A DNA stretch of 64,000 bases from a virus (taxonomy: Duplodnaviria > Heunggongvirae > Uroviricota > Caudoviricetes), in the IMG/VR virus record IMGVR_UViG_3300045988_163275, positions 32,001 to 96,000 of that record; one strand, written 5' to 3'. Within the stretch, counting starts at the first letter, position 1, and each line of letters starts with the position of its first letter. Position numbers and translations under genes: made by a program. This document shows, piece after piece, positions 1,183 through 55,460 of the stretch. The notes beneath the pieces were generated by a model that searched no databases, was not told the DNA's origin, and saw only the letters and a list, made by a program, of their open reading frames with translations.

Positions 1183-1216
1183 TAACAAATTGTTTTCTTG
1201 TTGGTGTTAATTATCG
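1183..1216 (-). promoter_or_regulatory. leader motif A copy (AACAAATTGTTTTCTTGTTGGTGTTAATTATC)
   Basis: conserved ~35-bp element 20 nt upstream of start of 680..1162. Confidence 0.5.
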
Positions 1217-1338
1217 TTGTACGAATAAGGCGTCAAAGTGGAAAGTTGCGGTAGCCGGACGGGAACAGGTGGGTTTGTCGGTTGCCTGGAGGTAAGAGGT
1301 TGGTGTTTTTAGCCTGCGGGAAACAGGATGGTCATTTA

Positions 1339-1360
1339 AGGCCACCAGCATTGGTGGCCT
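1339..1360 (-). terminator. stem-loop built from Chi-like octamers (GGCCACCAGC-A-TTGGTGGCC)
   Basis: 8-bp stem immediately 3' of stop of 1367..1654; contains CCACCAGC (Chi complement). Confidence 0.4.
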
Positions 1361-1366
1361 TACTCT

Positions 1367-1654
1367 TTAGTGGAGCAGACCGATGTCGATGGTATCCCCT
1401 GAATCATCCACACGGATCATCAGCATGGCGAAGGCGTTTAGTGGATAGCTTGCGTGCCATTCAGGGAAGCGGTCATCTCGCATGAAGTCGGCAATGTCGT
1501 AAACGCAGCCCTCAAAGTGGAAGAATCGCGTGCTTACCTGCTCGTCATATTCCACATGATCCATTTCTTGCTGTTCTGTTTCCGGCAAGTCCAGCCATGA
1601 TTCAAGGAATACATTTTGTGCTTTAGGGGTAATGGTGAAATCAGTCATGAGCAT
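1367..1654 (-). CDS. hypothetical small acidic protein (95 aa)
   Basis: track ORF 1367..1780 begins with TTG and covers motif A; first ATG with GAGGAT SD at 1652-1654 (MLMTDFTITPK...). Confidence 0.45.
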   Translation of the reverse strand: MLMTDFTITPKAQNVFLESWLDLPETEQQEMDHVEYDEQVSTRFFHFEGCVYDIADFMRDDRFPEWHASYPLNAFAMLMIRVDDSGDTIDIGLLH

Positions 1655-1667
1655 ATCCTCACTGCGT

Positions 1668-1700
1668 AAACATATTGTTTTCTTGTTGGTGTAATTATCG
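1668..1700 (-). promoter_or_regulatory. leader motif A copy
   Basis: CATATTGTTTTCTTGTTGGTGTAATTATC 14 nt upstream of ATG at 1654. Confidence 0.5.
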
Positions 1701-1810
1701 CAGTGTAGATAAGGCATAAAAGACGTTAATACAGGCTGAATACACAAGAAAGGTTCTGGAAGTTGATAGCCAGGTTTCAAACTAACCTTCGGTTATTAAA
1801 AGTCATTTAA

Positions 1811-1830
1811 GACCACCAATGCTGGTGGCC
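1811..1830 (-). terminator. stem-loop containing Chi octamer GCTGGTGG
   Basis: GACCACCA-ATGC-TGGTGGCC hairpin 3' of small ORF 1838..1981. Confidence 0.35.
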
Positions 1831-1837
1831 TTAATAA

Positions 1838-1981
1838 TTATCGCCCGATTACGCTAAGGATCTTTTCCTCAACTGATTTGTTGTTGCGACTAAACTGCCT
1901 TGCGTATCTTATGACAGAAGAGGCGTTTCGCTTTCTGACCATCTCGGCTCTCTCCTTCAGGCGTTTCTTGAAATCGCCCAT
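1838..1981 (-). CDS. hypothetical small basic protein (47 aa)
   Basis: ATG at 1979-1981, K/R-rich; not in ORF track (<60 aa); hand-translated. Confidence 0.25.
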   Translation of the reverse strand: MGDFKKRLKERAEMVRKRNASSVIRYARQFSRNNKSVEEKILSVIGR

Positions 1982-1983
1982 AT

Positions 1984-2358
1984 TTACCACCAGGCGCAGA
2001 AGGTCAGTCTATTATTGTGAAAGTCGTGGTTCTTAATCAGATCTTCCACAATCTCTTTCAACTCCCCCACATCATGCCAGTAACCTTCATCGTACTCCTG
2101 ACTGCCGAAGAAAAAACCTTCCTGGGTAGGCAAGTACTCTTCGCAATTACTTTCGTTTATGTGCATCAAATGAGCCTTCAGAAAACAAATGTCATTCATC
2201 GTTAATTCTAAAAGCTCACAATTTTCGACTTCACCTACGTTGCGCTCCATCCACCCAACGAGCGCATTGAACTTACGGAAGTAAGCAACCTGCTTTCTGG
2301 ATGCCTCGTTATTCAGATCGTTTTTTGGCTGCGTCTCGATGTAGATATCAAGCCCCAT
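1984..2358 (-). CDS. hypothetical protein
   Basis: track ORF 1984..2400 starts with GTG; internal ATG at 2356-2358 has AAGGAA SD (MGLDIYIETQ...); alternative ATG at 2392-2394. Confidence 0.45.
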   Translation of the reverse strand: MGLDIYIETQPKNDLNNEASRKQVAYFRKFNALVGWMERNVGEVENCELLELTMNDICFLKAHLMHINESNCEEYLPTQEGFFFGSQEYDEGYWHDVGELKEIVEDLIKNHDFHNNRLTFCAWW

Positions 2359-2416
2359 GATGGTTTCCTTATTAAGTTGCTTCAGTGAAATCATTTTCAC
2401 AAATCAGATAAGGCAG

Positions 2417-2440
2417 AAAACAAATTGTTATCGGGCATAA
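2417..2440 (-). promoter_or_regulatory. leader motif A copy (degenerate)
   Basis: GAAAACAAATTGTTATCGGGCATAAG upstream of 1984..2400. Confidence 0.35.
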
Positions 2441-2475
2441 GAAAATGGCGCGGGGTACGCGCCATTCAAAGAGGA

Positions 2476-2871
2476 TTAAGCGAATACGCTTTCAGGGACA
2501 ATGGTGTCGATCTTTTCGCCGGAGATTATTCGCAGACCGTGTTGTCCCATCCAGGTACTATTGGTATTTAAACTCGATGTATAAACCGCATCGACCTTTT
2601 TCATCAAATTTTCAAACAACGTCTGATCCGCGCCACGGAAATGAGTTTCCAGTTTTATCAGTAAAGGGTCAGAAGCATTACTGATGCTTTGGTAACGCAC
2701 CGAATATTTCCCCTTTGTCGCCTCGCCGGTGCGAGTTAAGGTACTGGTGTGAACTTCTTCGCCGGAGGCATTATCGCGTAGCACAATTGTAATTTTTGCA
2801 ACTTTGTCTCCATTTTCCGTCTCTGATGCATAATACATATCCAGGGTCAGATTTTCGCGTTTAACGGTCAT
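2476..2871 (-). CDS. hypothetical protein (131 aa)
   Basis: ATG at 2869-2871 with AAGGAGAG SD 5 nt upstream. Confidence 0.55.
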   Translation of the reverse strand: MTVKRENLTLDMYYASETENGDKVAKITIVLRDNASGEEVHTSTLTRTGEATKGKYSVRYQSISNASDPLLIKLETHFRGADQTLFENLMKKVDAVYTSSLNTNSTWMGQHGLRIISGEKIDTIVPESVFA

Positions 2872-2908
2872 TTCACTCTCCTTAGTGTTTAATTTTTAAT
2901 TTTATTAT

Positions 2909-2927
2909 CATAAGTAAGTACTTACAA
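2909..2927. promoter_or_regulatory. palindromic operator-like motif B copy (TAAGTAAGTACTTAC)
   Basis: palindrome core TAAGTACTTA, 38 nt upstream of ATG 2871. Confidence 0.5.
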
Positions 2928-2935
2928 TACAAAAA

Positions 2936-2962
2936 AGCCCCGAAGGATTGGCGGGGCTGTCG
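2936..2962 (-). terminator. rho-independent terminator
   Basis: minus strand GCCCCG-loop-CGGGGC followed by TTTTTT, just 3' of stop of 2993..3304. Confidence 0.6.
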
Positions 2963-2992
2963 TACATTCGACTAACTACTGCTTGCACATGT

Positions 2993-3304
2993 TTAAGCTA
3001 CCGCCTGAACAGACGCTCGTTGGATCTCTTGTTGGGCGACACGGTTGGCTTCCATCAGCGCCAGTTCAAGCTGGTCCTCTGGCCACATTTTCTGGACCGA
3101 CATCCACCCTCTTCCACGCTGGCGACGAACTACCATCACATAGCGCGTAAAATTGCCCGCGTCGAAGGTAATGGCTTTTTCACGAAACAGACGGATAGAA
3201 GTCCCATTCGCTACGATATCCAGCAATGTGAGATGCCCCATTAAGGTTGGTTTTTCTTTTCTATCCTGGCCTTCAGCAAGACCCAGCACCAATGAAGTAT
3301 TCAT
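2993..3304 (-). CDS. hypothetical protein (103 aa)
   Basis: ATG at 3302-3304 with GGAG SD; track ORF extends to 3334 over motif A. Confidence 0.5.
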   Translation of the reverse strand: MNTSLVLGLAEGQDRKEKPTLMGHLTLLDIVANGTSIRLFREKAITFDAGNFTRYVMVVRRQRGRGWMSVQKMWPEDQLELALMEANRVAQQEIQRASVQAVA

Positions 3305-3314
3305 CACCACTCCG

Positions 3315-3350
3315 TAAACAAATTGTTTTCTCAATGGCGTAAATAATACC
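3315..3350 (-). promoter_or_regulatory. leader motif A copy
   Basis: AAACAAATTGTTTTCTCAATGGCGTAAATAATAC 11 nt upstream of ATG 3304. Confidence 0.5.
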
Positions 3351-3464
3351 AGTGTAAAAACGGCTACAAAGCATATTGCTCAGGCACATGAATTATCTAA
3401 AGGTGGTTCTGCCCTGCGGCTACAGAGAAGTTAAGCCAGCAGGCGGTGCTGGCTTTGGTTGGGC

Positions 3465-3794
3465 TTACGCGAATAACTCAAGGAATTCCTGCACGTCCCA
3501 ATGCTGGACAAGGTGAAGATAGAGCTTAGAAATCACGTCATTCTCGCTATCGCATGTGAAGTAGTACTTCTGGCTGCGGTTGTATGTGTCCACACAAAAT
3601 TCGCTCATATCCATAAAGTCAGCATCTTCACCCATGTCGCAAATAATCAAAGCAGGAGCATCATCACGAGTCATCAGCTCAAGCACCCAGCGCGAATTGA
3701 TCAGCGTGGAAGACCAACCTTCTAACTCATAAAACTGGTCAAACTCTTTTTGAGTCATTTTCTTGATTTGGTTGATGTCGATATTTGCAAACAT
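3465..3794 (-). CDS. hypothetical protein (109 aa)
   Basis: ATG at 3792-3794 with AAGGAT SD; track ORF extends to 3860. Confidence 0.5.
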   Translation of the reverse strand: MFANIDINQIKKMTQKEFDQFYELEGWSSTLINSRWVLELMTRDDAPALIICDMGEDADFMDMSEFCVDTYNRSQKYYFTCDSENDVISKLYLHLVQHWDVQEFLELFA

Positions 3795-3806
3795 AAAGCA
3801 ATCCTT

Positions 3807-3840
3807 AAACATGTTGTTTTCTGAATTGCGTAAACAATAC
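3807..3840 (-). promoter_or_regulatory. leader motif A copy
   Basis: AAACATGTTGTTTTCTGAATTGCGTAAACAATAC upstream of 3794. Confidence 0.5.
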
Positions 3841-3933
3841 CAGTAAGAAAACGGCCACAAAGTATATCGTTACGGTGCTGCGCTGCCCCGGAGGTTAATA
3901 GCGACAAAAGCCACCGTGCTGGTGGTCTCACTC

Positions 3934-4152
3934 TTAATCTTCGTCGTCCGGGAACTCGCTGTGTACCGCGTCCACCAGCTCCCGCTTTTCATCTTCACTA
4001 AGCAGGTGCCAGATATCCTTCCCTTTGGGCGATTCCCCTTCTGCCGGGACGAACGACCACAACTTGCGGTACAACTCCGGCCCCACTGCATCCAGACACT
4101 CAGCCAGGGAATCCACGCCCCACACCTCAACCGTCACAGGCATCTTAATCAT
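3934..4152 (-). CDS. hypothetical acidic protein (72 aa)
   Basis: ATG at 4150-4152 with GAGGAT SD; preferred over overlapping low-complexity frame 3870..4130. Confidence 0.5.
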   Translation of the reverse strand: MIKMPVTVEVWGVDSLAECLDAVGPELYRKLWSFVPAEGESPKGKDIWHLLSEDEKRELVDAVHSEFPDDED

Positions 4153-4183
4153 CTCTTCATCCTCACTTCGTTTCTATAACGTC

Positions 4184-4218
4184 TAAATATGTTGTTTACT
4201 TGTTGGTGTTATTATCGC
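4184..4218 (-). promoter_or_regulatory. leader motif A copy
   Basis: AAATATGTTGTTTACTTGTTGGTGTTATTATCGC upstream of 4152. Confidence 0.5.
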
Positions 4219-4239
4219 AATAAGACAAAGGCGAAAAAG

Positions 4240-4700
4240 GATTTTATGTCGTGAAAGCCAGGCTGGGCAGTGAATATCCGGGAACGACACGGGAACCAGT
4301 ATTTACGATATTCTGCTCTACGCGCGCCGCAGGGCTGGTGGGCAGAATTTTCTTCTCCCCGAAAACCTACTGAAATCGCTTGAGACCCGAGGATGGTCTG
4401 GCAGACTGGAGTTCAGCAGCTGCACGAGAGGGAACGACACTCCCCCGCGATTTTCAGGCGAGTGAAGAGTAAGGCGCACTCCCGAAGATTTCCCGCACCG
4501 CTCCCGCAGTCGTCTCTCACTCTGTACCGGGATGTACCCGTTTCCCGACCGGCAGCCAGCCTTTTCCCGGTTCGTATAGCGAGATTCCCACCGTTTCCCT
4601 GAAAAACCTCCAGCCTTTTCCCTGCGGCGACGTTCCCGTTCCTGAAAAGGGACATGGCCTTTTCCCTGGATGGCCCGAAGGCTGACCGAAGGGGTGGATA
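4240..4700. repeat. cluster of GGGAAC / CCGTTTCCC / CCTTTTCCC short repeats (copy 2)
   Basis: CCGTTTCCCTGAAAAA ... CCTTTTCCCTGCGGC arrangement mirrors 540-640; ORF-free. Confidence 0.5.
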
Positions 4701-5560
4701 GGGACGTTACGGGGGATGAAAGCTATGGCTTGAATTTATACGAAGAAAGTGGCGATACCCCTCCTTCCCTTCCCACTTATACCTCCCACGAATTTTCTCT
4801 CTTATGTGGGCATAAATCTTCTCTCTGATAACGCTCAATACGGCGACTATTCCTGTGGGTGAAATGGGTGGTTTGTTCTTTCTACCGGCATATGTGGTTT
4901 CGTTCTTCTTGAGGTGGTTCTTCTCTGTGTTTTCGTCAGGGTTGTTCTCGTTGTTTTGGTGATTGTTCTTCTCTGTGTATGGAGTAATGGCAGGTGGGCG
5001 ATTCCTTTCGTTATTGTATTTGAGTTGTTTGTCTTGAGAGCGTGAAAGGCTTTTGTGGTTATTTGTGTATTGAGTAATGGCGTTTCCCCGCGAATGTTCT
5101 GTTTCGTGTCTTTGGGGATTGAGGGAGTCCTTGCGGTAACAGGCTTCGTTAGAGTTTCAGTGGTTCTGGTGTTTATTCGCTGTTTGGGGAATGGCGTGTA
5201 GTGGGTATCGCATGTATGAATGTTTCGAGTTGCCTGTGAAAGTTAGGTTGGTTGTCCGGTAGCCTGGGAAGAAGAGGTGGGTCTTTTCAGTAGCCTGCCA
5301 TAAAGAGGTTGGTTGTTTTTGGGAATGTGGGTAATGGCGTCTCTGGGTTTCCTGTGGGTGTGGTTAGCTTGTTTTCTTGTGTCTGAAAACAACTTGTTTA
5401 GATGTCCAATATAACGCAACGGGAGCGCTTCTGAGCGTGTCTGTTTTTGGGTGGTATCACGAGTCGTTTTTGACGTTTTGGTCGCAGGGAGATGGATTCT
5501 GGTACGCTGGATTTGGGTATAAGAGATGGCGTGCGAAAACATCAACTTTTTAGACCAAAT
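4700..5560. repeat. ORF-free region with extreme G+T strand bias and internal direct repeats
   Basis: plus strand almost entirely G/T; repeated (G)AGTAATGGCG at ~4983, 5073, 5186, 5329 and GTTCTTCTCTGTGT twice; track ORFs here are compositional artefacts. Confidence 0.5.
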
Positions 5561-5595
5561 CAGGGGAAAGCGTTGACTTTACGTTGATGTGTTAT

Positions 5596-5625
5596 TTATT
5601 TGTTTTCTTATGGGTGTAATTAGCT
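5596..5625 (-). promoter_or_regulatory. leader motif A-like copy facing the G+T-rich region
   Basis: TTATTTGTTTTCTTATGGGTGTAATTAGC; would direct minus-strand transcription into 4700-5560. Confidence 0.3.
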
Positions 5626-5741
5626 TAAATGCCTTGTCACGCCTGGGATTGAGTGGGGTAGGGTGGTGGGGAAAGTGGCGATCAACGGACTCTTATAGAA
5701 ATCCTCAATTTGTGACCGCCAATATCAACGAGTTGCAGCCG

Positions 5742-6311
5742 TTAGTTGTTCAGATAGGCATCCGGAACGCGCACATAAAAGTTTCTTTCGCCGGTCAGTT
5801 CCAGAGTAACGTTTATGTCGTTGCCGTTATCCAGCGTAGCCGTCGCTTTATAGAACTTGTCCGTCACCTTGTCCTGAATTGTCACCTTCATACATTTCGG
5901 CGCTGTGGTTCCGTTATTCTCTTTCAGAATGGTCGTTACGAGAGGACAAGCCGCTTCTTCAAGAGCAACCTCTTCCTGGTGTGGGATACCGATGAAGATG
6001 TTACCAGCAAGCAACGCGACGATTACGATAAAAGGAAGTCGACTGCCTTTTGTAACGGTGGCACGTTTCCAGAGATAGACCGGAAGGAGAAATACTCCCC
6101 ACAGGATGGCCGGTGGTTCATACCCTGCATCAGACAATGCCATTCTGTCAGCCACCAGAAAGCCGAGTCCAGCGACTCCACCTATCACTATTGCATAATT
6201 CAAATACTCATCTGGCGGTACTCCAAAGAAGAGAGGCAGTAAAGCTAGAAGCCACGCATAAGCATTATTCAGAGGTTTTGTTTGTTGGTTCTGGGTTTCC
6301 ATCACATCCAT
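5742..6311 (-). CDS. hypothetical integral membrane protein (189 aa)
   Basis: three hydrophobic helices (LLALLPLFFGV, VIGGVAGLGFLV, FIVIVALLAGNIFIG); ATG at 6309-6311. Confidence 0.5.
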   Translation of the reverse strand: MDVMETQNQQTKPLNNAYAWLLALLPLFFGVPPDEYLNYAIVIGGVAGLGFLVADRMALSDAGYEPPAILWGVFLLPVYLWKRATVTKGSRLPFIVIVALLAGNIFIGIPHQEEVALEEAACPLVTTILKENNGTTAPKCMKVTIQDKVTDKFYKATATLDNGNDINVTLELTGERNFYVRVPDAYLNN

Positions 6312-6387
6312 TCCATCAGATTAAAAAGCGGTACTATGTTACCAATTTTCTTCGCTTATATGACATGATTACTCAACGAGTGGGCGA

Positions 6388-6708
6388 TCACCATTCCCAT
6401 GCAGGTAGCCCATCCACCAGCTCGGCGTCGCAATCGAAGTGAACCACGTCAAAGCCGTCATCCAGTATGGTCTGTATGTTGGAGATCGCCTCTTGGGAAA
6501 TGCCGTACTCACGCAGTTCTTCCTTCCAGTCATTCCCTCGCATTCCAGCACGAACAATCCAGCCGTACTGTGTACCGTGTACCCAATTCAACCCGCGATC
6601 AGTAAGTGGGTCGAAGCAGGCAATGGGTAGCCGTTCTGAATCCGCTGCCGTGACGTGGGCGGTGCTGATCACCGCCGTCTTATACGATTCGGTGATTTTC
6701 AGCATCAT
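6388..6708 (-). CDS. hypothetical protein (106 aa)
   Basis: ATG at 6706-6708 with AAAGGAGAAGG SD; overlaps stop of upstream gene. Confidence 0.55.
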   Translation of the reverse strand: MMLKITESYKTAVISTAHVTAADSERLPIACFDPLTDRGLNWVHGTQYGWIVRAGMRGNDWKEELREYGISQEAISNIQTILDDGFDVVHFDCDAELVDGLPAWEW

Positions 6709-6941
6709 GCCTTCTCCTTTGGAAACAGAATGTTGGCCGTGTCAGAAATGACATCCCAATTCACGCCGACGCTGGCGTCATGGCACTCTTTGATTTTTCG
6801 CAAAACCTGAACGCACTGTTCGTCAGTCAGGTCTGGTCGCCCTTCACCTACATCTTCCTTGTGCCACATCACCATCAGCAGCGGCTCGTCTTCTGGGTAG
6901 TTCTCCAGCTTTTCGATAATTTCTTTCGCGGTTCCGAACAT
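6705..6941 (-). CDS. hypothetical protein (78 aa)
   Basis: track ORF starts TTG at 6959; ATG at 6939-6941 with AAGGAG SD 6 nt upstream. Confidence 0.5.
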   Translation of the reverse strand: MFGTAKEIIEKLENYPEDEPLLMVMWHKEDVGEGRPDLTDEQCVQVLRKIKECHDASVGVNWDVISDTANILFPKEKA

Positions 6942-6953
6942 GATTAACTCCTT

Positions 6954-6986
6954 AAACAATTTGTTTTCTTATTGGTATTATTATCT
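6954..6986 (-). promoter_or_regulatory. leader motif A copy
   Basis: AACAATTTGTTTTCTTATTGGTATTATTATC upstream of 6941. Confidence 0.5.
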
Positions 6987-7026
6987 CAAATAACGAAAGG
7001 CAGAAAACAAGATGTTTAAGGGATGA

Positions 7027-7293
7027 CTAGGTGAGTTTGAAGTCGTCTATGTCATCAACAAACTCCATATACCTGGCTTCGACACTCGACAATCTGATCA
7101 GATACGCAAGCCCGTAACTTAGTGAAGTGGGTTGCTCCAGCACAAATTCGAACCCATCCTCATGCGTTTTACCAAGCCAGAACCCCCCACCGTATTCTTT
7201 TTCACGTTGGAAGAAAACGAACTGTCCGGGTATTAGGTGCTTGAGTGCTTCGCCCCTATAGACGATCACATATTTAGAATTCTTGCTGCCCAT
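7027..7293 (-). CDS. hypothetical protein
   Basis: track ORF 7027..7350 starts TTG; ATG with GAGG SD at 7291-7293; start uncertain. Confidence 0.4.
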   Translation of the reverse strand: MGSKNSKYVIVYRGEALKHLIPGQFVFFQREKEYGGGFWLGKTHEDGFEFVLEQPTSLSYGLAYLIRLSSVEARYMEFVDDIDDFKLT

Positions 7294-7381
7294 TGCTCGC
7301 CTCGCAATACTGCACATATAAACAGTGGTATTTATTACGGTACTGGTCAACTTTACGGGTTAATTGAATAACAAGATGGTG

Positions 7382-7400
7382 AAAACAATTTGTTTTGGCG
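7382..7400. promoter_or_regulatory. leader motif A core in divergent intergenic region
   Basis: AAAACAATTTGTTTTGGCG between minus gene ending 7350 and plus gene at 7481. Confidence 0.35.
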
Positions 7401-7480
7401 CTTGAGATTTTGCAAATCGCACCTACATGGAAAACGGCAATTTTTGAAACCTGATTTGACCCATGTGAAAGGAGGAAACG

Positions 7481-7684
7481 ATGAAGACCTATGATCGCAA
7501 CCGTAACACTATCACTACCGGCAGCCGAGTGATGGTGGCAACGAATGGTGCAACGGGAGTCATCAAGGAAATCTGCGGAGAAGGCAAATCAGAAGAACAA
7601 TTACGCCGCTCTGACTGCGTGTCTATCGAAGGTGTGGAAGATCTGTTCTGCCCAATGGATTTAGTTCGCCTGGGATTCCAATAA
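7481..7684 (+). CDS. hypothetical protein (67 aa), plus strand
   Basis: ATG preceded by AAAGGAGGAAACG SD; isolated plus-strand gene. Confidence 0.5.
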   Translation: MKTYDRNRNTITTGSRVMVATNGATGVIKEICGEGKSEEQLRRSDCVSIEGVEDLFCPMDLVRLGFQ

Positions 7685-7698
7685 TTACACCACTAATT

Positions 7699-7712
7699 AA
7701 ACAAATTGTTTA
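7699..7712. promoter_or_regulatory. leader motif A core (partial)
   Basis: AAACAAATTGTTTA next to GGCCACAAATAATGGCC hairpin 7717-7738. Confidence 0.25.
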
Positions 7713-7739
7713 AGGCCACAAATAATGGCCTTATCTGGC

Positions 7740-8438
7740 TTACGGAACAGCAGTAATCAGATCGCAAATGCCTGTTTTAGTTAAATCACTATTTAGCTTC
7801 TGAAAATTGGCATTCAGCATTGCGGTATGTATTCGATTCTCAAGTTCAAAGAAGAGATCGATCTTGCCCTCTTTGGCTGCCACCTTCTTCCAAATATTCA
7901 CCTGGTCATCTGCGATACGACTTGCGCAGGTGAACAAGAACGAACTCCCTCTGGGAAGGGATGTCGTGCTGTAGTATTCACCGTCAACTTCAATATACTT
8001 AGCTCGGAATGACTCCAGAGTTAGCTTTTTACCGCTCTCAGCCTGCTTTGTGTCTGCCTTGCTTGTCTTTTCCTGAACTTCAGGCTGTTTCTGCACAGGC
8101 TTTGGTGTCTCATTGACCACCGCAGTGCTGGCCGAACCATCCAAACTCTTGAGGCCATTAATTTGGATTAGATAAGCCAACTCCAGAGTCTTATCACCAG
8201 TGAGTTTTCCACGCATACTTACCCATTGACGCTGAACCGTCTTTAAGGCGTCTGCGTCCCCCGGGTTTGCTTTGAGTGCGTTGGAATAGGTAGAGCTAAG
8301 TTGTTCGTCTAATTTTGACAGGCGTTCGTTATCGCAGATTTTGTGTTCGATTTCTGCCGAAGCCTTTTGGCAGTCAAAGCTGGCTGCAAATACAGCCGGC
8401 GATGCCACCAACAATGATGCCAGTAGGATATTTTTCAT
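7740..8438 (-). CDS. secreted protein with LprI/DUF1311-like N-terminal domain
   Basis: signal peptide MKNILLASLLVASPAVFA; FDCQKASAEIEHKICDNERLSKLDEQL pattern; ATG 8436-8438 with GGAG SD (track ORF starts at GTG 8444). Confidence 0.6.
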   Translation of the reverse strand: MKNILLASLLVASPAVFAASFDCQKASAEIEHKICDNERLSKLDEQLSSTYSNALKANPGDADALKTVQRQWVSMRGKLTGDKTLELAYLIQINGLKSLDGSASTAVVNETPKPVQKQPEVQEKTSKADTKQAESGKKLTLESFRAKYIEVDGEYYSTTSLPRGSSFLFTCASRIADDQVNIWKKVAAKEGKIDLFFELENRIHTAMLNANFQKLNSDLTKTGICDLITAVP

Positions 8439-8476
8439 ATTCACTCCATAAATATAAAAGCGCCTGACTATAGCAC

Positions 8477-8692
8477 TTAACCGATTGCTTCTCTCATCTG
8501 ATTGTGAAGCTCTTTCAGCCCATTACGTACCGCGTTCATGATACGTTCCAGGTATTGGTATCTGGGGTTTGGCACCGTTGGCCAACCGGCATACCACGGA
8601 TCGTCACCAAACAGACTCAGCAGTTCGTTACCGACACCGAAACAGCAGCAACTTTCTTTTACGTCATCAGCGTTTTCTGCCTCGTCCCACAT
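8477..8692 (-). CDS. hypothetical protein (71 aa)
   Basis: ATG at 8690-8692; reading frame stays open ~23 codons upstream without a start. Confidence 0.35.
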   Translation of the reverse strand: MWDEAENADDVKESCCCFGVGNELLSLFGDDPWYAGWPTVPNPRYQYLERIMNAVRNGLKELHNQMREAIG

Positions 8693-8738
8693 ATTGCGGG
8701 CCTGCTCTGCGTCGATTTCTCTCTCTCCCTGCGCAACT

Positions 8739-8978
8739 TTATGATTTCGGATTTGACGAAAAGCAGGTTTGCGTCGTTGTCATCGTCGACCGTACTGAAG
8801 TGGCACACTGAATTTGGCCGTCTGTAATGGGCAGATCCGGCAACTGTTTAAAAACTTCCATCTGCTCATGGATACGCAGAAACCACCTTGCCAGCTCCAT
8901 CTGCTCACCGCGGGTGAGGGGATTATTCAGCGGGGACTTAACAAAAGCGGAGACTCGCTCGACAAGCAGATCATTCAT
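8739..8978 (-). CDS. hypothetical protein (79 aa)
   Basis: ATG at 8976-8978 overlaps TGA of upstream gene (ATGA coupling). Confidence 0.35.
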   Translation of the reverse strand: MNDLLVERVSAFVKSPLNNPLTRGEQMELARWFLRIHEQMEVFKQLPDLPITDGQIQCATSVRSTMTTTQTCFSSNPKS

Positions 8979-9664
8979 GCCGCGCACCTCTCTGCTTTCT
9001 CCTGCAATTCGCGAACGAACTCGACCAAAGAGCCACCTGGCGGGATCTGGCATTCCTCAACCAACTGGAAGTATATGTCTGCGGCCGCGCGTGTGTTCGA
9101 GCCTTTGTTTAGCTGCTCTTCGCGCAGCGCATCACGTTCATTAATCAAACGGACGCACTCGCCGTTACGCTGATCCACAACGGCCTCAAGTTCAGCGATA
9201 CGTTCGCCAGGAGTCTTACCTTCTTTACGTTGAATGGTGACGGTAAACTCACCCATTTCAGGAACGTCGTACCCCAGCTCCAGGTAGTTTCTGGCCCCGC
9301 TACGAACAAACTCACCGGCAAACATGGTTGCGAACATCGCAGAGGCCATTTCACCTTTAAACAGAGACTCCAAATCTAACGGAGTACCCGCAGCCAGAGC
9401 CGTTTTTTCTGTATCAATTGCAGACATGAATGCATCAAATTCACGAGCACGTTTTTCCAGGTCTCTCCATTGCTCGCTCCAACGTTTAGCAACGAAGTCT
9501 ATGAATGTTTTCGCGGATTCATCATAATCCCCTTCAAACTTAACAGTGCCTTTGTCAATGATGATCTGGTCTACTGCTTCCTCTGCATAACCTCTCATTA
9601 CAAATTTGAAAGGAAAGTCGGCATGGCTTTTGACGTTAAAACGCTCTAACGGAAGATTGCTCAT
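8975..9664 (-). CDS. hypothetical protein (229 aa)
   Basis: ATG at 9662-9664; no recognisable motif. Confidence 0.5.
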   Translation of the reverse strand: MSNLPLERFNVKSHADFPFKFVMRGYAEEAVDQIIIDKGTVKFEGDYDESAKTFIDFVAKRWSEQWRDLEKRAREFDAFMSAIDTEKTALAAGTPLDLESLFKGEMASAMFATMFAGEFVRSGARNYLELGYDVPEMGEFTVTIQRKEGKTPGERIAELEAVVDQRNGECVRLINERDALREEQLNKGSNTRAAADIYFQLVEECQIPPGGSLVEFVRELQEKAERCAA

Positions 9665-9705
9665 GTGTTTTTTCTCTTATCATATAGTCACTATATTCTT
9701 ACATA

Positions 9706-9728
9706 GATTAGGTAAGTATTTACCTCTC
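9706..9728. promoter_or_regulatory. palindromic motif B copy
   Basis: GATTAGGTAAGTATTTACCTCTC between genes. Confidence 0.5.
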
Positions 9729-11412
9729 ATTTAACGCGTTTAAAAACGTATACGCTGACAGTAATCCCGGTGTCTTCAAACATGTTAGTAAACGACTTCC
9801 CTTTGGCATAAACGTAATTATCCAGCGTCATCCAGTTTAGAATTGGCGCGTCGCCCGGCAGCACTGCTACCAGACGCCCACCGACTTTCAGATGTCCCAG
9901 CGCGGCCAACGTGTGCTCTCTGTGACGGCCAAGAGAGTAGGGCGGGTTCATGACGATTTTGTCGAACTGATAACCTGCGTTGTCCTCAGACCACTTCATG
10001 AAGTCGCAGCAGACCGTATTTGTGTACCCCTTGCCAAGCAGGATATCAGCGAAGAGAGGTGCGACTTCTATGCAGGTAACGTCTTCCGGATTGGCGTCGA
10101 TGCAGGCCAGCAGATCTCCGCGCCCGGCTTCAGGCTCCAGCAGCTTCTCACCTGGCTTCAGCTCGATGGCTCTGGCAACGTACTCCGCTATCAAACGCGG
10201 GGTAGGGTAGAACTGGTGTGATTTTGTATCCGGTATTAAGCCGGTGGCCACAATCGTATTGAGCGTATGGCCGATCTCATACGGGAACTGCCAGTGCTTG
10301 TTCTCCTGCACGCCGCCAATAAAGCTCAGTGTACGCTCCAGCTCTTCCACCTGTGACTTCTGAAGACCGGAATCAGAGAAGTACCATACGCGTTTGTCAT
10401 TGCCAGATCGCCCGTCGCGAAGCGCAGTACGCACCGGCTCGGAGATCGTCTTCTGGATTAACCCGAACTGTTTTGGTGCCCGTGTTTTGGGCGCAGTACG
10501 ACATGGAGCCGGGATTGCAGCGGGCATACTGTAAGCCAGCACCTCATTCAGCTTCCAGGCTACGTCAGGATGTATTTCAAAGTGAACGTTGCCGTTCTTA
10601 AACATCTTCACACGCATCAGGTTTCCGTCGACATTCATCCAGTCGCCGGTCTGGCAGTCATTTGCTCGATACGCAGCTGACAGCATCTCGGCCGTGCGGT
10701 TGATGGTGATAAATTCTTTGTGTGCAAAGAAATGCAACATGACGCGCAGGTCGTCTATGTAATCCTCTTTCCGGTAGTTAACGCTGACGCTGTCCCGCCA
10801 GAAATCGGAAATGCAGTCGGCGATGATCAGACGCTCGCTGAAGCCGTTCGTCTTATTGGTCTTGTGAGCAGGACTCAACGCCTTAAACAAGCCATACACG
10901 CGCTCAGAGAGATATTTGTGCCTGTCATTCAGCAAATTAAGCATCGTTGGTATGACCGTTTCTGCTTTGAACTCAGGTACACCAACGAACTCTTTAACCT
11001 TCATTTGATAGCCAGTTCTGTCAGTCTTGATCGTTTCCTGCTTGCCCTCGATAAACTGTTCACGCCACTCGTCGCGGCGGGATGCTGGCATGATCAGCAG
11101 AACGTTGGTCATATCCGTGACCTTCTTCCAGTACTCGGCCCAGATATTTTGTTTCACCCATTCCAGGTCGACTTTGTCCAGCCAGGTTCTGTTAAAGCGT
11201 GTGCGCTCGTCGTCCGGCCGGTGGTTAAGTCGCAGTAGACGGTTAATCATGTTGTGGCGTTCGTCGCCATAAACGAAGTCGTGAACCTTATTCATGAACG
11301 CAATCTCTTTCTCGCATTCGGCCACAATTTCGTGGATAACATTCATTTCCTGCCGGTAGTCAATACCGGTGTCTGGAGTGATAGAGTCAATGATGGAAAG
11401 GGCTGTATTCAT
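9727..11412 (-). CDS. putative amino-methyltransferase (likely DNA N6-adenine) with large N-terminal domain of unknown function
   Basis: C-terminal FYPTP ... LEPEAGRGDLL ... VMNPPYS motifs (AdoMet motif I then NPPY); ATG 11410-11412 (track ORF starts TTG 11430). Confidence 0.55.
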   Translation of the reverse strand: MNTALSIIDSITPDTGIDYRQEMNVIHEIVAECEKEIAFMNKVHDFVYGDERHNMINRLLRLNHRPDDERTRFNRTWLDKVDLEWVKQNIWAEYWKKVTDMTNVLLIMPASRRDEWREQFIEGKQETIKTDRTGYQMKVKEFVGVPEFKAETVIPTMLNLLNDRHKYLSERVYGLFKALSPAHKTNKTNGFSERLIIADCISDFWRDSVSVNYRKEDYIDDLRVMLHFFAHKEFITINRTAEMLSAAYRANDCQTGDWMNVDGNLMRVKMFKNGNVHFEIHPDVAWKLNEVLAYSMPAAIPAPCRTAPKTRAPKQFGLIQKTISEPVRTALRDGRSGNDKRVWYFSDSGLQKSQVEELERTLSFIGGVQENKHWQFPYEIGHTLNTIVATGLIPDTKSHQFYPTPRLIAEYVARAIELKPGEKLLEPEAGRGDLLACIDANPEDVTCIEVAPLFADILLGKGYTNTVCCDFMKWSEDNAGYQFDKIVMNPPYSLGRHREHTLAALGHLKVGGRLVAVLPGDAPILNWMTLDNYVYAKGKSFTNMFEDTGITVSVYVFKRVK

Positions 11413-11423
11413 GATTGCACCAT

Positions 11424-11456
11424 TAAACAAATTGTTTTCTTATTGGTGTTATTTTC
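11424..11456 (-). promoter_or_regulatory. leader motif A copy
   Basis: TAAACAAATTGTTTTCTTATTGGTGTTATTTTCTC upstream of 11412. Confidence 0.5.
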
Positions 11457-11513
11457 TCAAAGCTAAAAAGGCGTAAAAGCAGCATTCACAGGCGTTGCAG
11501 CTGATTTAAGACG

Positions 11514-11536
11514 TAAAAAGGGGGCTTTCGTCCCCT
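11514..11536 (-). terminator. rho-independent terminator
   Basis: minus strand GGGGACGAAAGCCCCC followed by TTTTT, 3' of stop of 11553..12125. Confidence 0.6.
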
Positions 11537-11552
11537 GTACGCAGGTGAGAGA

Positions 11553-12125
11553 TTAGTGGTGTACGTGCTGCGTTTTGTACGGCTGTTTGTTCAGGTTGTG
11601 GCGGTGCATAAGCTCGCGCATCATGTCTTCAAGACGGCTCTTGGTGTCGTCAAGCTGGTCGGCCATTGCCCCCAGCAGCTGGCGAAGGGCCATCGGATCG
11701 TCGCTGTTCAGCTCAGGCATTTTGAACCCAGCCTGGGAAGACATCAGTTTGAAAGCGGCCAGCAACATCGCCAGAGAAGACTTCAGCCCGGCGATTTCAT
11801 GATCTTTGCTGGCGTTGGTTTCATCTGCCTTGACTGAATCCAGTGAGCACTTCGGCTTGCTTACCATTTCCAGAGTTGCCTGAAGTTTGTCGGCGCGTTC
11901 TTTCTCTTCCAGATACGCTTCGCCGAAATGACGCGCCAGCATCACAATTTCAATCGGATCATCAATCATGCTTGAGAACTTGAGAACGCTGAAAAGGCGG
12001 TCAATAGGGGAGGCGTCGTCTTCGTGACCAACCACAAGACCCATGATCTCAACCAGTTCGGCCGCACCAACTTTTTTAATCACGCTTTCAACTTTGGCAT
12101 TAGTTTTTTTGCATTTTTCACACAT
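11553..12125 (-). CDS. hypothetical protein (190 aa)
   Basis: ATG 12123-12125 with AAGGAAG SD. Confidence 0.5.
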   Translation of the reverse strand: MCEKCKKTNAKVESVIKKVGAAELVEIMGLVVGHEDDASPIDRLFSVLKFSSMIDDPIEIVMLARHFGEAYLEEKERADKLQATLEMVSKPKCSLDSVKADETNASKDHEIAGLKSSLAMLLAAFKLMSSQAGFKMPELNSDDPMALRQLLGAMADQLDDTKSRLEDMMRELMHRHNLNKQPYKTQHVHH

Positions 12126-12144
12126 GTGTTCTTCCTTATGCTTT

Positions 12145-12178
12145 TAAACAAGTTGTTTTCTTAATTGTTTAATTGTCT
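12145..12178 (-). promoter_or_regulatory. leader motif A copy
   Basis: TTTTAAACAAGTTGTTTTCTTAATTGTTTAATTG upstream of 12125. Confidence 0.45.
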
Positions 12179-12333
12179 CAAATTCTATGATGATGTGAAG
12201 AGTTGCATTAAGGCGAAAAGACACGCAAAAGGAAAAATCAGGCATACCAGACATTTATTTAAAGTGGCATTCATAGCAGAATGTTCTCATTGCCGAAGTT
12301 CTATTCAGACGTCAGTCCCTAAGAGAGAGCAAA

Positions 12334-29416: not shown

Positions 29417-29461
29417 CCCGGACCCTGCAAACCGTTGTGCCACATGGCTTTAGAGGTTATC

Positions 29462-29585
29462 GATATCCACTATAGCGAGAATAACAACCACTATGGAGAG
29501 TAAATCAACCACTATGGAGAGTAGAAAAACCGCTGTAGGCGGTAGGATAACCACTGTGATGGGTGCTACTATCCACTGTAATCAG
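29462..29585 (+). repeat. iteron cluster B (6 direct repeats) immediately upstream of repA
   Basis: six ~19-bp repeats at ~22-bp spacing ending 40 bp before repA ATG. Confidence 0.8.
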
Positions 29586-29625
29586 TAAAGGCACCCAAGC
29601 CGTCGAATAAAAAGAGACATTTGGA

Positions 29626-30681: not shown

Positions 30682-31247
30682 CCCAACCACTGTAGAGAGT
30701 AAAAAGGCTCACTATCCACTGTAGTGAGCCTTTTTGTTTATCGGAAATGCAATATCCACTGTAGTGAGTAAAAGAAACCGAAGAATAACCACTGTAGGCA
30801 GTGCGCACAAATCGCGAAGTAAATGTTAGTGGTTGCAAACATAGATAAAACAAGGGCTGAGAGGTTAGCGGTCACTGGGTATCCATGTTAAGTCTACTCT
30901 CTACAGCGGTTATCGTCGCTCTCTTCATTGTTGACTATCCACTGTGAAGAGCAGAATTGGCTGACTTGACCTTTATCCACTGTAGTGAGTGGATATCTGT
31001 TTAAAACAGCGAAGATTTACTCTCCATAGTGGATATCCGCTGGAGGAGGCATTCCATCACTCTCTATAGTGGTTGTTTGTAGTCAGTGAACGCCTGTTTA
31101 CTCACTACAGTGGATAGTTGATATCGTGGCAGAGGGTTTGCTCACTACAGTGGTTGGGGTGCATACCTGAAGGGTGTTCTACTCGCTACAGTGGTTATGA
31201 GCCGGATTCACACACGGTGAGCTGGCTACTCACCGCAGTGGATAGTG
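30682..31247. repeat. downstream iteron field (~13 repeats in both orientations)
   Basis: direct copies at ~30682, 30710, 30750, 30782, 30933, 30971; inverted copies at ~30891, 31017, 31058, 31097, 31137, 31176, 31225. Confidence 0.8.
30703..30735. terminator. bidirectional terminator-like hairpin after repA (embeds one iteron)
   Basis: AAAAAGGCTCAC-TATCCACTGT-AGTGAGCCTTTTT. Confidence 0.5.
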
Positions 31248-31250
31248 TTA

Positions 31251-53072: not shown

Positions 53073-53131
53073 GTTTTTTCCTTACTGTTTGTCGTTTGTG
53101 GGGTATATCTTATAGAAATATATTAGGCTGT

Positions 53132-53150
53132 ATAGTAAGTAGTTACTTAT
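53132..53150. promoter_or_regulatory. palindromic motif B copy
   Basis: ATAGTAAGTAGTTACTTAT upstream of the AAA+ gene. Confidence 0.45.
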
Positions 53151-53167
53151 TTTTAAGGGTAAAGCTA

Positions 53168-55399
53168 TTACCAAAGAATGATACGAGATAACTCAGTGAC
53201 GACTGACGGCCCTAACTCTTCAACACTGTTAACCAGTGCGTAATTTTTGTAGTAACGCCGTGGTTCGTCGGTCAGAATGCCGATAGCCATCAGTTCGATG
53301 TCGCTCAAGGTCTCAATTTCTTTGGTGACGGTTCGTAAATGCTGATGGAATCCACTACCTGTAGCACATGGCTCCCCATCACTCATAACCAGCATGATCT
53401 TTTTGTCCTCCATTCGCCCTGCAAACAGGGTAGCCAGTTGCGCGACACTCTCACCATCGACGTTATTGAGCAGGGGGAACGTCTCACATACGCATCCCAT
53501 GCGAGCACGGATCTCTGGAGAGTTTGCTTTCTCATTCCAGTTTTTGATAATGGGCAGCATGAGCGCCTCGAAGCGTGTAAACCCGCGCTTCGACCTGGTT
53601 TCATAATCTGGGCTACCGAACGTGGTAAAGCCGGTGATGATGTTGGGGACATTGATACGATCTAAAGCATCCGCAATGGTATAGGCACTGGCTAGGGCCA
53701 GTTGAATCTTCACGCCATCCATTGAGCCGGACAAGTCGATGACCTGCTGGACACACGCATTCACCGCTCTATGGTCTTCCTTCTTGCGGAACACTCGGTC
53801 GTCGTTCATTGCCAGACGATACAGGCTCGCGCCATGTATCCGCCCACGCCTCTGACCAGGTATAAACTGAACTCGGTTGCGGCTGGCGATGGCCCGCTCC
53901 AGGTCTTTGGCCAGCGTCGAAGAAACGCCTGCAGACAGATGTTTTTCGATTTTCAGTTCAAAGAGTTTTCTGCCTTCTGGCACCATACGGTAGCGGTCGA
54001 CTGGTGAGTGCATTGGTATTGCACCGAACGTCTTTCTGGTGCGCTTCACATGCTCTTCGGCTCCATCAATCAACCCGATAAAGTCGTATGATCGATCGTA
54101 TGGCCGATAATCAGAAGGTGAGACGCTCATAAGCTCTTTGCTGATGGTGGCCGACAGTGCGTCTTCGGTCATTTCACCGATTCCGTCTTCCATCTCGTCG
54201 AGCGCCTTTAGCGCCTCCTCCAGAGTCATTTCATCCGGCGCAGGAACAAAGCCAGACTCACTGTCTTTGGGCACTTCCGCACCATCTTTATTTTTTTTGC
54301 CTTCGACGTCTTCTTCTTCAGTTTCCCCACGATCAGTATCGGAGTCCTCACCGCCATCACCATCGGTGTCAGAGTCACTTGATTTCATGCCGATAGCATC
54401 GGATTCTGGGGTGTCTCCTGACTCTTCGTGGCCTGCTTCTGTATATTTACTTTCTGTATCACTAATATCTTTAACGTGTGTAGGTAAGTCCTTATCTAAC
54501 GAATCAGGCAAATCGGAATCCCCAGAATCTTCCTCTTCTGATGCATCATCTTCTCGTTCTTCCTTGTCATCGCCTTCGCCTTTGGCAGGCTTAGATGCAG
54601 AGTCACCATGAGATGGCTCGTCACCTGATTCTGGCGTTTCCTCGGACTCGTCTTTGCTCTCCGACGGATTTCTGGCAGATGATTTAAGTTCTGGTAATTT
54701 GCCCTCTGGCTTGTCTTTCATATCCTGCATGATTTGGGCTATAGCAGCAGCGACCTTCACGCAATCCTCAGTGTTCGACATATTGCGAACGGCCACGTCT
54801 ATACCATGCTCCTTTAGTAAGGCTACCGGCCTCTCGATAAGGCGCCAGTGTTCTTCCATAAAATCGATGAAGGGGCTTTGTCCATCCCAGGCGCGGACGA
54901 CCGGGCAAAGGAAGAATTTCAAAAACAATTCACGCTGGTCTCCGTGACAGGCTAAAACCGCTTCTGGTACTTTATTCCTGAAGTATTTGTCGATAACCAG
55001 ACTCTGTGTTGCAAGTAAATTACGCCGGGTTCCGTTAAAGACCTGCCCCATTCTGCGTTCAATAAAAACGTCTTCCAGCGCATTCCAAAGCCCCGTAGAC
55101 GGAGCCTTTCCTCTTTCGCGCATCTGCATTGCGACTTTCGGTTCAGTAAAGAGAATATGGGCCACCTCATGGTCGAGAAAACCACGCACTGCGTTCATGA
55201 GGGTTGGCGACGCGTCGTCCGGTATAGATGGGATGTTTACCAGCACTGGTTCGCCGCGCCGGTTATAGCGGACATATGCTTCATTGCCTCGTTCTGCAAC
55301 AGGTATCTGTTTACCTGAAAGCATCGCTACAACTCGTTTTACACAGTCGCGAAAATCCTGCACCTCTTTCAGTACAGCTTTGGTGGTTTTTTTGGACAT
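53168..55399 (-). CDS. von Willebrand factor A (vWA) domain protein with acidic low-complexity linker
   Basis: C-terminal MIDAS DLSGSMDG and LVMSDGEP; central D/E/S-rich region; ATG 55397-55399 with AAGGGAA SD (track ORF extends to 55468). Confidence 0.7.
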   Translation of the reverse strand: MSKKTTKAVLKEVQDFRDCVKRVVAMLSGKQIPVAERGNEAYVRYNRRGEPVLVNIPSIPDDASPTLMNAVRGFLDHEVAHILFTEPKVAMQMRERGKAPSTGLWNALEDVFIERRMGQVFNGTRRNLLATQSLVIDKYFRNKVPEAVLACHGDQRELFLKFFLCPVVRAWDGQSPFIDFMEEHWRLIERPVALLKEHGIDVAVRNMSNTEDCVKVAAAIAQIMQDMKDKPEGKLPELKSSARNPSESKDESEETPESGDEPSHGDSASKPAKGEGDDKEEREDDASEEEDSGDSDLPDSLDKDLPTHVKDISDTESKYTEAGHEESGDTPESDAIGMKSSDSDTDGDGGEDSDTDRGETEEEDVEGKKNKDGAEVPKDSESGFVPAPDEMTLEEALKALDEMEDGIGEMTEDALSATISKELMSVSPSDYRPYDRSYDFIGLIDGAEEHVKRTRKTFGAIPMHSPVDRYRMVPEGRKLFELKIEKHLSAGVSSTLAKDLERAIASRNRVQFIPGQRRGRIHGASLYRLAMNDDRVFRKKEDHRAVNACVQQVIDLSGSMDGVKIQLALASAYTIADALDRINVPNIITGFTTFGSPDYETRSKRGFTRFEALMLPIIKNWNEKANSPEIRARMGCVCETFPLLNNVDGESVAQLATLFAGRMEDKKIMLVMSDGEPCATGSGFHQHLRTVTKEIETLSDIELMAIGILTDEPRRYYKNYALVNSVEELGPSVVTELSRIILW

Positions 55400-55426
55400 T
55401 AGAATTCCCTTGTTGTTAAAACAATT

Positions 55427-55460
55427 TGTTTTCTGATGTGCGTAATTTATCACTGTACGA
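55427..55460 (-). promoter_or_regulatory. leader motif A copy
   Basis: TAAAACAATTTGTTTTCTGATGTGCGTAATTTATC upstream of 55399. Confidence 0.5.

Follow-up and report, generated by a model that had tools for sequence, protein, structure and literature searches.

The present analysis concerns a 64,000-nucleotide (nt) stretch of Caudoviricetes DNA (IMG/VR record IMGVR_UViG_3300045988_163275, positions 32,001 to 96,000; hereafter, the window) and a repeat that recurs in it, mostly in front of small open reading frames (ORFs) on the minus strand. The invariant core of this repeat is a 13-bp mirror-symmetric dyad, AAACAAnTTGTTT. The explanation we favour, with a probability of roughly 0.6, is that the full-length copies are promoters equipped with a downstream operator for a putative DNA-binding regulator of a phage-plasmid, which would silence a shared set of genes.

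The dyad occurs in the window eight times in perfect form, 13 times with at most one mismatch and 17 times with at most two, against 0, 0.38 and 5.1 occurrences, respectively, expected from first-order Markov simulations. In total, the window holds 15 dyad sites: nine within full-length copies of the repeat, one in a decayed copy and five that consist of the core only. The repeat had been pointed out before in a sequence-only reading of this DNA and its existence is far beyond chance, yet the description given there needs correcting. The 32-nt consensus quoted for it is found at only three places with up to three mismatches (0 expected), while the family as such was recovered by repeat finding and alignment. 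Likewise, the thirteen copies said to sit 11-32 nt before start codons mix two classes: the claim stands for the nine full-length minus-strand copies (11, 12, 12, 12, 19, 19, 20, 20 and 32 nt from dyad to start codon), but not for the core-only dyads at 2418, 5387, 7005, 7383 and 7699, none of which lies 11-32 nt from a start. Also the proposed AACAATTTGTT core forms part of the 13-bp dyad. Four dyad strings were absent from the literature searched, and we found no published description of the motif there.

Over 73% of their length, bases 1-12500 of the window share 86% identity with Salmonella phage SSU5; with several Escherichia coli plasmids they share 95-98%, and they match 783 plasmid records from Klebsiella, Escherichia, Enterobacter, Yersinia and Salmonella. 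Because of these matches to SSU5 and to plasmids, we assign the window, on sequence grounds, to an E. coli phage-plasmid of the SSU5/pHCM2/pMT1 type. Such elements are widespread, with pHCM2 in S. Typhi, pMT1 in Y. pestis, pLF82/Cyrano and many Klebsiella and E. coli plasmids as examples. As whole-replicon context we used pCUVET18-789.1, a close relative that is complete (113.7 kb) and to which the window aligns from ~85.1 kb, across the repA origin, to ~35 kb.

Read on the coding (minus) strand, a full-length copy consists of a weak -35-like CTTTnnnGCC, ~15 nt, TGn followed by GATAAT, TATTAT or a close variant, then ACACCAAYAAG, the dyad plus an A, a Shine-Dalgarno (SD) sequence and the ATG. 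The -10 hexamers in the window are GATAAT (four times), TATTAT, TATTGT, GAAAAT, GACAAT and TAAATT, and in eight of the nine full-length copies the hexamer is preceded by TGn, an extension that had been overlooked. We extended the comparison to 163 distinct leader contexts, drawn from the window, SSU5, Cyrano, two E. coli plasmids and 40 viral contigs. A -10-like hexamer (near TATAAT, its second base being A and its sixth T) lies 12-15 nt upstream of the dyad in 100 of these 163 contexts, compared with 16 in shuffles, and 82 of the 100 carry TG at -15/-14, where 0.8 would be expected. The earlier observation that no consistent -35 hexamer accompanies the element holds, as the best matches reach just 2-3 of six positions, in the window as well as across the related contexts; this absence would follow from the promoters being of the extended -10 class. 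Indeed, a TG one base before a hexamer with A2 and T6, along with a poor or absent -35, is what characterizes sigma-70 extended -10 promoters, and the full-length copies fit this class as far as can be predicted from their sequence. A non-canonical promoter, as had been suggested, is therefore not needed. A promoter on the plus strand was considered too and rejected, since no consistent spacing emerges and that strand has nothing downstream.

The spacing between -10 hexamer and dyad is 13-14 nt in 95 of 129 contexts, while the distance from dyad to ATG ranges from 11 to 71 nt. The position of the dyad is hence fixed relative to the promoter rather than to the start codon. With a transcript start predicted ~7 nt past the hexamer, a gap of 13-14 nt would place the dyad at about +8 to +20. 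Among the possibilities raised by the sequence-only reading, that of an operator site in the leader is consequently the best supported one.

The make-up of the dyad favours a site on double-stranded DNA over one on RNA. Any base can occupy its centre (G 58, A 37, C 34, T 34), so that the motif is effectively AAACA-N3-TGTTT; mismatches cluster at the inner positions 6 and 8 and are in no case compensatory. This symmetry is consistent with recognition by a dimeric DNA-binding protein. Besides, neighbouring sites (at most two mismatches) keep fixed distances: 51 bp in 61 cases (43 distinct sequences), 25 bp in 26 and 50 bp in two, with no other spacing below 96 bp. In the 51-bp pairs, of which 7005 with 6954 is the example in the window, the promoter lies between the two dyads, one centred at ~-38 and the other at ~+14. 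Nine leaders fold no better than their shuffled counterparts (z -1.3 to +1.0), and an Rfam search of the whole window returned a tRNA as the sole match at gathering score and no cis-regulatory RNA family. Moreover, conserved core-only sites lie over -35 regions (2418 and 7005), in a divergent intergenic region or directly past terminator hairpins, and those past the hairpins should not be transcribed.

The gene set marked by the dyad extends well beyond the window. In pCUVET18-789.1, there are 18 dyads at one mismatch or less, against ~0.6 expected; those outside the region covered by the window precede the genes for a DnaB-like helicase, a small ParA and a Rha/Ant protein, and two that are 25 bp apart precede the terminase operon. 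The helicase, parA, Rha/Ant and terminase promoters differ from the canonical cassette, yet keep AGAAAACAAnTTGTTTA. Sites in the window and in this complete relative overlap the RNA polymerase footprint, being centred at ~+14 or ~-38. The motif is the same in SSU5, Cyrano, Klebsiella-type, Kluyvera and Buttiauxella relatives and Y. pestis pMT1, at protein identities down to ~64-67%, and dyad positions carry ~1.6-1.9 bits of information, most flanking positions less than ~0.8 bits. In the unrelated lambdoid phage ev099, which has the LprI gene cassette too, the homologous position has decayed to AAAAAAATATTTAAGG; this fits a site that is kept up only in the presence of its partner. Most of the driven ORFs are small and several are strongly acidic (isoelectric point 4.1-4.6), which suggests early anti-host proteins; Pfam and PHROGs searches with the driven proteins revealed no function except for the methyltransferase. 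One 13-bp site marks ~20 promoters, belonging to replication, partition, antirepressor and packaging genes and to an array of small acidic early genes. Accordingly, the dyad provides an experimental handle on its binder and its gene set, and defines a candidate early or anti-host gene set.

For indirect evidence on the expression of these genes, we turned to published RNA-seq data from an E. coli LF82 lysogen of phage Cyrano, that is, of a relative of the element studied here. In this lysogen, driven genes were at or near the background of ~10 normalised counts (cobT 7.8, CYRAN_58 5.7, helicase 21), and CYRAN_104-111 ranged from ~6 to 26, except for the small ORF CYRAN_109 at 58; the repressor-like CYRAN_45 reached 96 counts (PMC9928086, S1 Table). 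Most dyad-driven genes are transcriptionally silent in the related lysogen, the parA operon and CYRAN_109 being the exceptions.

Under the explanation we favour, host sigma-70 would start transcription from the extended -10 element with its weak -35, ~7 nt past the hexamer, and the dyad would act as a double-stranded operator for a symmetric, probably dimeric regulator encoded by the phage-plasmid. When occupying the +14 dyad, and at many promoters the ~-38 dyad exactly 51 bp upstream as well, this protein would block RNA polymerase, so that a dispersed regulon stays silent while the element persists as a plasmid (lysogenic state). Its members would be small and mostly acidic early or accessory genes, a DNA methyltransferase gene, ant, the helicase-primase genes, cobT-cobS-dnaE, parA and the terminase operon.

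As to the binder, candidates are the 117-amino acid (aa) partner of the small ParA, a 129-aa helix-turn-helix (HTH) repressor, or another small protein. The gene for the 117-aa protein (the homologue of CYRAN_29) follows parA in an operon that carries the dyad, and the sequence of its product looks like that of a putative ribbon-helix-helix protein with a basic tail. The 129-aa HTH repressor (window 55981-56370) is the homologue of CYRAN_45 and is expressed in the lysogen; its own promoter bears a different palindrome, GGTAAGCACTTACC, directly past the -10 box, and the 8-bp separation of half-site centres in the dyad is, we infer, short for an HTH dimer. In every relative found, the dyad is conserved along with the second palindrome, an FljA-like protein, the 129-aa HTH repressor and the partner of ParA. 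As the candidates and both palindromes are conserved together, covariation could not pair a regulator with its site.

The second palindrome is itself dispersed: ATAGGTAAGTACTTACCTAT has 12 sites in the window at three mismatches or less (Table 1), versus 0.02 expected. Its distribution is largely complementary to that of the 13-bp dyad, and it lies directly past -10 boxes, including that of the conserved 129-aa HTH gene promoter, for which reason it is probably the operator of the HTH repressor. It resembles the SlmA-binding consensus, GTGAGTACTCAC.

Several points weigh against a DNA operator. Whereas the repeat, its build, its promoter-tied position, its conservation and the low mRNA of driven genes in a relative are observed, transcription start, repression and DNA-level mechanism are what we infer, and the regulator is putative. 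A simple canonical sigma-70 scan found fewer promoter-like sites than in shuffles and recognised one copy only, the latter because the -35 boxes are poor. The dyad-bearing parA operon is expressed in the Cyrano lysogen, at 50-89 counts (PMC9928086, S1 Table). The 51-bp spacing may have arisen by duplication rather than selection, and the flanks of the dyad are asymmetric, with AAG towards the promoter and A towards the gene. Finally, every relative examined encodes, ~1.2 kb beyond the left end of the window, a 174-aa protein of the FljA family (PF03614, Flag1_repress; E 6e-69).

This last point leads to an alternative at the level of mRNA, which we consider unlikely. In that scenario, an FljA-family protein of the phage-plasmid would bind the leader RNA (...AAGAAAACAAnUUGUUUA, then the SD sequence), block ribosome loading and shut off translation of the early genes, much as FljA acts on the fliC 5'-untranslated region or T4 RegA on many early mRNAs, where it has translational operators. 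The gene in question (pCUVET18-789.1 83443-83967, where the E value of 6e-69 was obtained) belongs to a family present in 40 viral loci. Although long annotated as a transcriptional repressor, the FljA family (Pfam Flag1_repress) is predicted to fold into two tandem Sm/Hfq-like domains without an HTH, and this predicted fold keeps the mRNA-level alternative alive. A separate FljA clade, ~37% identical to flagellar FljA, was encountered almost exclusively on contigs with the size or gene content of SSU5-type elements. A genome scan for distant FljA proteins yielded eight loci, of which five are of phage-plasmid type with 4-11 dyads each and three are canonical fljBA loci with 0-1; no third kind of FljA context was among them.

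The sites themselves speak partly for this alternative. As in the FljA/fliC system, an FljA-family gene lies near the array and many dyads (nine or ten sites in the window) are found in short A/U-rich 5' leaders adjoining the SD sequence, and the Salmonella fliC leader includes CAAGTTGT, the inner core of the dyad. However, CAAGTTGT is absent from the fljB-type leaders examined, the E. coli fliC leader reads CAACGACTTG rather than CAAnTTG, and a plasmid with an FljA of the phage-plasmid type is reported to make motile E. coli non-motile (PMC2652032). Since Salmonella shares CAAGTTGT but E. coli does not, we downgraded the fliC resemblance as a lead. Unlike in the flagellar system, the position of the element is tied to the promoter, that is, to the -10 hexamer and not to the ribosome binding site, and about a third of the sites (five of 15 in the window) fall outside leaders, some of them past terminators. 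A single-stranded RNA site would not be expected to show exact dyad symmetry together with a free centre and a lack of compensatory changes, and the hairpin that the dyad could form has five A-U-rich pairs and would not be stable. Besides, the driven genes are low already at the mRNA level in the Cyrano lysogen, and the FljA-like gene is barely expressed there during growth in LB (18 counts versus a background of ~10; PMC9928086). For the same reasons (a variable distance to the start codon, sites outside leaders, no leader fold and low mRNA), the translational site offered by the sequence-only reading is less likely than an operator.

The more specific proposal that the SSU5-type protein is a RegA-like global translational repressor, reading leader AAGAAAACAAnUUGUUUA on ~20 early mRNAs, appears a little more doubtful still. 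If it were true, these mRNAs would have the element as their common operator, and flagellar FljA would belong, as a domesticated member, to a phage family for the control of translation.

Closer to the DNA operator that we prefer is the idea that the dyads are primarily dispersed centromere or partition sites, bound by the partner of the small ParA, with promoter silencing as a by-product; it overlaps with our preferred explanation and differs just in the identity of the protein and its primary function. Comparable dispersed partition sites are the SopB sites of phage-plasmid N15, the KorB OB sites of RK2 and those of omega of pSM19035. A perfect dyad lies at the parA operon promoter of both pCUVET18-789.1 and Cyrano, the ParA identity is backed by phrog_164, and the operon is, as mentioned, expressed in the lysogen. 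The 117-aa protein has a disordered basic N-terminus followed by a strand-helix-helix-like KSRTMSLEDEYFELL...FTRSDVIRAAIFHLAE, of which SRTMS is invariant in homologues of 50-97% identity. Yet this fold is putative, the parA operon is located outside the window, and one site at parA stands against 14 in the early-gene array, each precisely placed relative to a promoter. We regard partition as the primary function of the dyads as quite improbable.

A last scenario dispenses with a dedicated trans-acting factor: a promoter-leader cassette would have spread by duplication and recombination, its A/U-rich leader being a promoter-proximal, translation-enhancing or host-factor (e.g. Hfq) site. Indeed, in the comparison with SSU5, six of 16 homology breakpoint ends fall within ~60 bp of elements that cover ~12% of the region, the pattern is similar for Cyrano and the Kluyvera and Buttiauxella relatives, with whole genes between elements swapped, and the array is made up of small non-essential ORFs that have promoters and terminators of their own. 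The cassettes mark boundaries at which relatives exchange early genes. Nevertheless, descent alone does not explain that the dyad is far better conserved than the remainder of the cassette, occurs by itself in both orientations and at unrelated promoters ahead of helicase, parA and terminase genes, and keeps its strict symmetry over long divergence while decaying outside the SSU5-type phage-plasmid family, and we consider this scenario very improbable.

Table 1. Dyad sites and second palindromes in the window. Distances run from the dyad to the ATG; O1 and O2 denote the two dyads of cassette 6.
Feature	Position	Strand	Dyad	Promoter elements	Distance to ATG	Gene or context
Cassette 1	1183-1240	-	1183-1195, minus-strand AAACAATTTGTTA	GATAAT 1210-1215, without TG; TTGACG -35-like box upstream	20 nt (ATG 1162)	heads 160-aa ORF 680-1162
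Cassette 2	1668-1724	-	1668-1680	TGC+GATAAT 1694-1699, spacer 13	19 nt	heads 93-aa acidic ORF 1367-1648
Core-only dyad	2418-2430		minus-strand GATAACAATTTGTTTTCTGCCTTATCTGATTTGTGAAAAT	over -35 region (centre ~-38); TGT+GAAAAT 2393-2398		promoter of 124-aa ORF 1984-2358; directly past terminator hairpin of upstream gene; kept in SSU5, pLR-46_1, Cyrano
Cassette 3	3316-3373	-	3316-3328, perfect	TGG+TATTAT 3343-3348, spacer 14	11 nt	heads 103-aa ORF 2993-3304
Cassette 4	3807-3864	-	3807-3819	TGG+TATTGT 3834-3839	12 nt	heads 109-aa acidic ORF 3465-3794
Cassette 5	4185-4241	-	4185-4197, 2 mismatches	TGC+GATAAT 4211-4216	32 nt	heads 72-aa acidic ORF 3934-4152
Core-only dyad	5387-5399		AAACAACTTGTTT, perfect			within 1.6-kb stretch without annotated gene; no ORF start downstream; kept in SSU5, pLR-46_1, Cyrano
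Decayed cassette	5593-5650	-	GCTAATTACACCCATAAGAAAACAAATAAAT; dyad at 5593-5605 lost right half	-10 matches 3/6		
Cassette 6, two dyads	6954-7017	-	O2 6954-6966; O1 7005-7017; 51 bp apart	TGA+GATAAT 6980-6985; O1 overlaps -35 region	12 nt (from O2)	heads 78-aa DUF1380-type ORF 6705-6941
Core-only dyad	7383-7395		perfect, also in SSU5 and pLR-46_1			divergent intergenic region, 88-aa ORF 7027-7293 (-) / ydfZ 7481-7684 (+)
Core-only dyad	7699-7711		perfect			beside terminator hairpin GGCCACAAATAATGGCC between convergent ydfZ and LprI genes
Cassette 7	11425-11481	-	11425-11437, perfect	TGA+GAAAAT 11451-11456	12 nt	heads 561-aa DNA methyltransferase gene 9727-11412 and later genes; terminator-like hairpin upstream, 11519-11536
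Cassette 8	12146-12202	-	12146-12158, perfect	TTCACA-16-TGA+GACAAT, hexamer 12172-12177	20 nt	heads 190-aa ORF 11553-12125
Cassette 9	55419-55490	-	55419-55431, perfect	TGA+TAAATT 55444-55449	19 nt	heads operon of cobT-like ORF 53168-55399, AAA ATPase, dnaE; conserved hairpin precedes; site conserved in 75 related loci
Second palindrome ATAGGTAAGTACTTACCTAT	9709, 14155, 15350, 16408, 21251, 22526, 27958, 32304, 46988, 54481, 59679, 62241; also ~2903, ~55935-55955					

Individual sites show additional features. In SSU5 and Cyrano, the hairpin-adjoining dyad of the 7699 type also overlaps the -35 of a TGTGAAAAT promoter. The imperfect orthologous dyads at window 3807-3819 (AAACAACATGTTT) and at position 95801 of the Cyrano record (AAACATGTTGTTT; both on the coding strand) are exact reverse complements of each other with identical flanks, which suggests an inversion of the central triplet by a hairpin-templated event. 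In the paralogous minus-strand leaders 3284-3339 and 3774-3830, a helix of 7 bp frames the dyad, with the SD sequence among the paired bases; the helix sequences differ between the two (CGCCAUU/AGUGGUG versus GCAAUUC/GGAUUGC), and it is possibly an SD-sequestering stem specific to these two genes.

A 1.6-kb stretch (4160-5740, minus-strand reading), which begins past the decayed copy at 5593, includes the dyad at 5387; in a 98%-identical plasmid no gene is annotated there. Its part between 5650 and 4870 is strikingly rich in C and A, poor in G and carries GCCATTAC repeats, and the part between 4700 and 4400 contains at least five GGGAAA(A/C)GG repeats; Rfam gave no match in 4150-5760 at E up to 1. 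This stretch may represent a long non-coding RNA or a protein-titrating region.

Upstream of the cobT cassette, a conserved hairpin (CTGTACGAACAG-N9-CTGTTCGTACAG, 55450-55490) separates it from a 70-aa gene and shows compensatory changes in the Cyrano group (CTGCGCGAA/TTCGCGCAG). In the Cyrano RNA-seq data, expression drops ~30-fold across the hairpin upstream of cobT when the upstream gene is induced (PMC9928086), and the hairpin is likely a terminator or attenuator. Elsewhere, a 28-31-nt repeat (GTAGCCTGG..AAGAGGT.GGT) forms tandem pairs at 1275-1338 and 5253-5319, downstream of small early genes, and two nearly identical terminator hairpins (TAAGGCCACCAGCATTGGTGGCCTTA) lie at 1337-1362 and 1807-1834. 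Terminator modules are therefore repeated as well as promoter modules.

Some neighbouring loci deserve mention, too. Where SSU5 and pCUVET18-789.1 have the dyad-headed Rha/Ant antirepressor gene, the window has a 319-aa ORF (12334-13293, plus strand) that is labelled a restriction endonuclease in the closest plasmid. SSU5_116 (SSU5 record 94056-94328), a 'putative repressor-like protein', is annotated opposite in strand to a cassette-headed ORF; in pLR-46_1, a 98%-identical plasmid, it is the cassette-headed ORF that PGAP calls at the equivalent position, and the SSU5_116 call is probably an annotation artefact. Lastly, iteron-like repeats (TATCCACTGTAGTGAGTA, AACCACTGTAGAGAGTA) are present in either orientation at ~29.06-29.59, 30.67-31.00 and 31.09-31.25 kb (window 29060-31250), near the position at which the alignment places repA (record position 1 in pCUVET18-789.1), and presumably constitute the plasmid origin.

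How does the element compare with known systems? Dispersed operator regulons are those of RK2 KorB, with 13-bp palindromic OB sites, of P1 C1, with many scattered operators, and of pSM19035 omega, with its heptads. The element would functionally resemble these operator sets of plasmid and phage-plasmid global regulators, joined here to ordinary extended -10 promoters: one short site is found at many promoters, over the -35 or just past the start, with one regulator for replication, partition and accessory genes. The KorB OB site is likewise a 13-bp palindrome, of a sequence unrelated to our dyad, whereas the P1 C1 operators are asymmetric 17-mers. What differs from all three is the tight array of single-gene cassettes with a fixed promoter-operator geometry, and that the regulator here is putative. 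A second parallel is with the PeSLs of T4-type phages, strong sigma-70-like promoters with stem-loop terminators that mediate modular shuffling (PMC2839356). There, too, repeated early-type promoter modules flank small, variable, non-essential ORFs and homology breakpoints fall at the modules (PMC2839356, PMC4122927). Yet the cassettes described here do not appear to form a fixed composite of promoter and stem-loop, as the terminator-like hairpins preceding several copies are 0-120 nt away and differ in sequence; the best-conserved part is a dyad operator, which has not been described for PeSLs; and the host is a temperate phage-plasmid instead of a T4-like virulent phage. Seen against these systems, the finding is solid and of use for a widespread, little-understood family of phage-plasmids and, unless the FljA-type mRNA model is correct, not mechanistically surprising.

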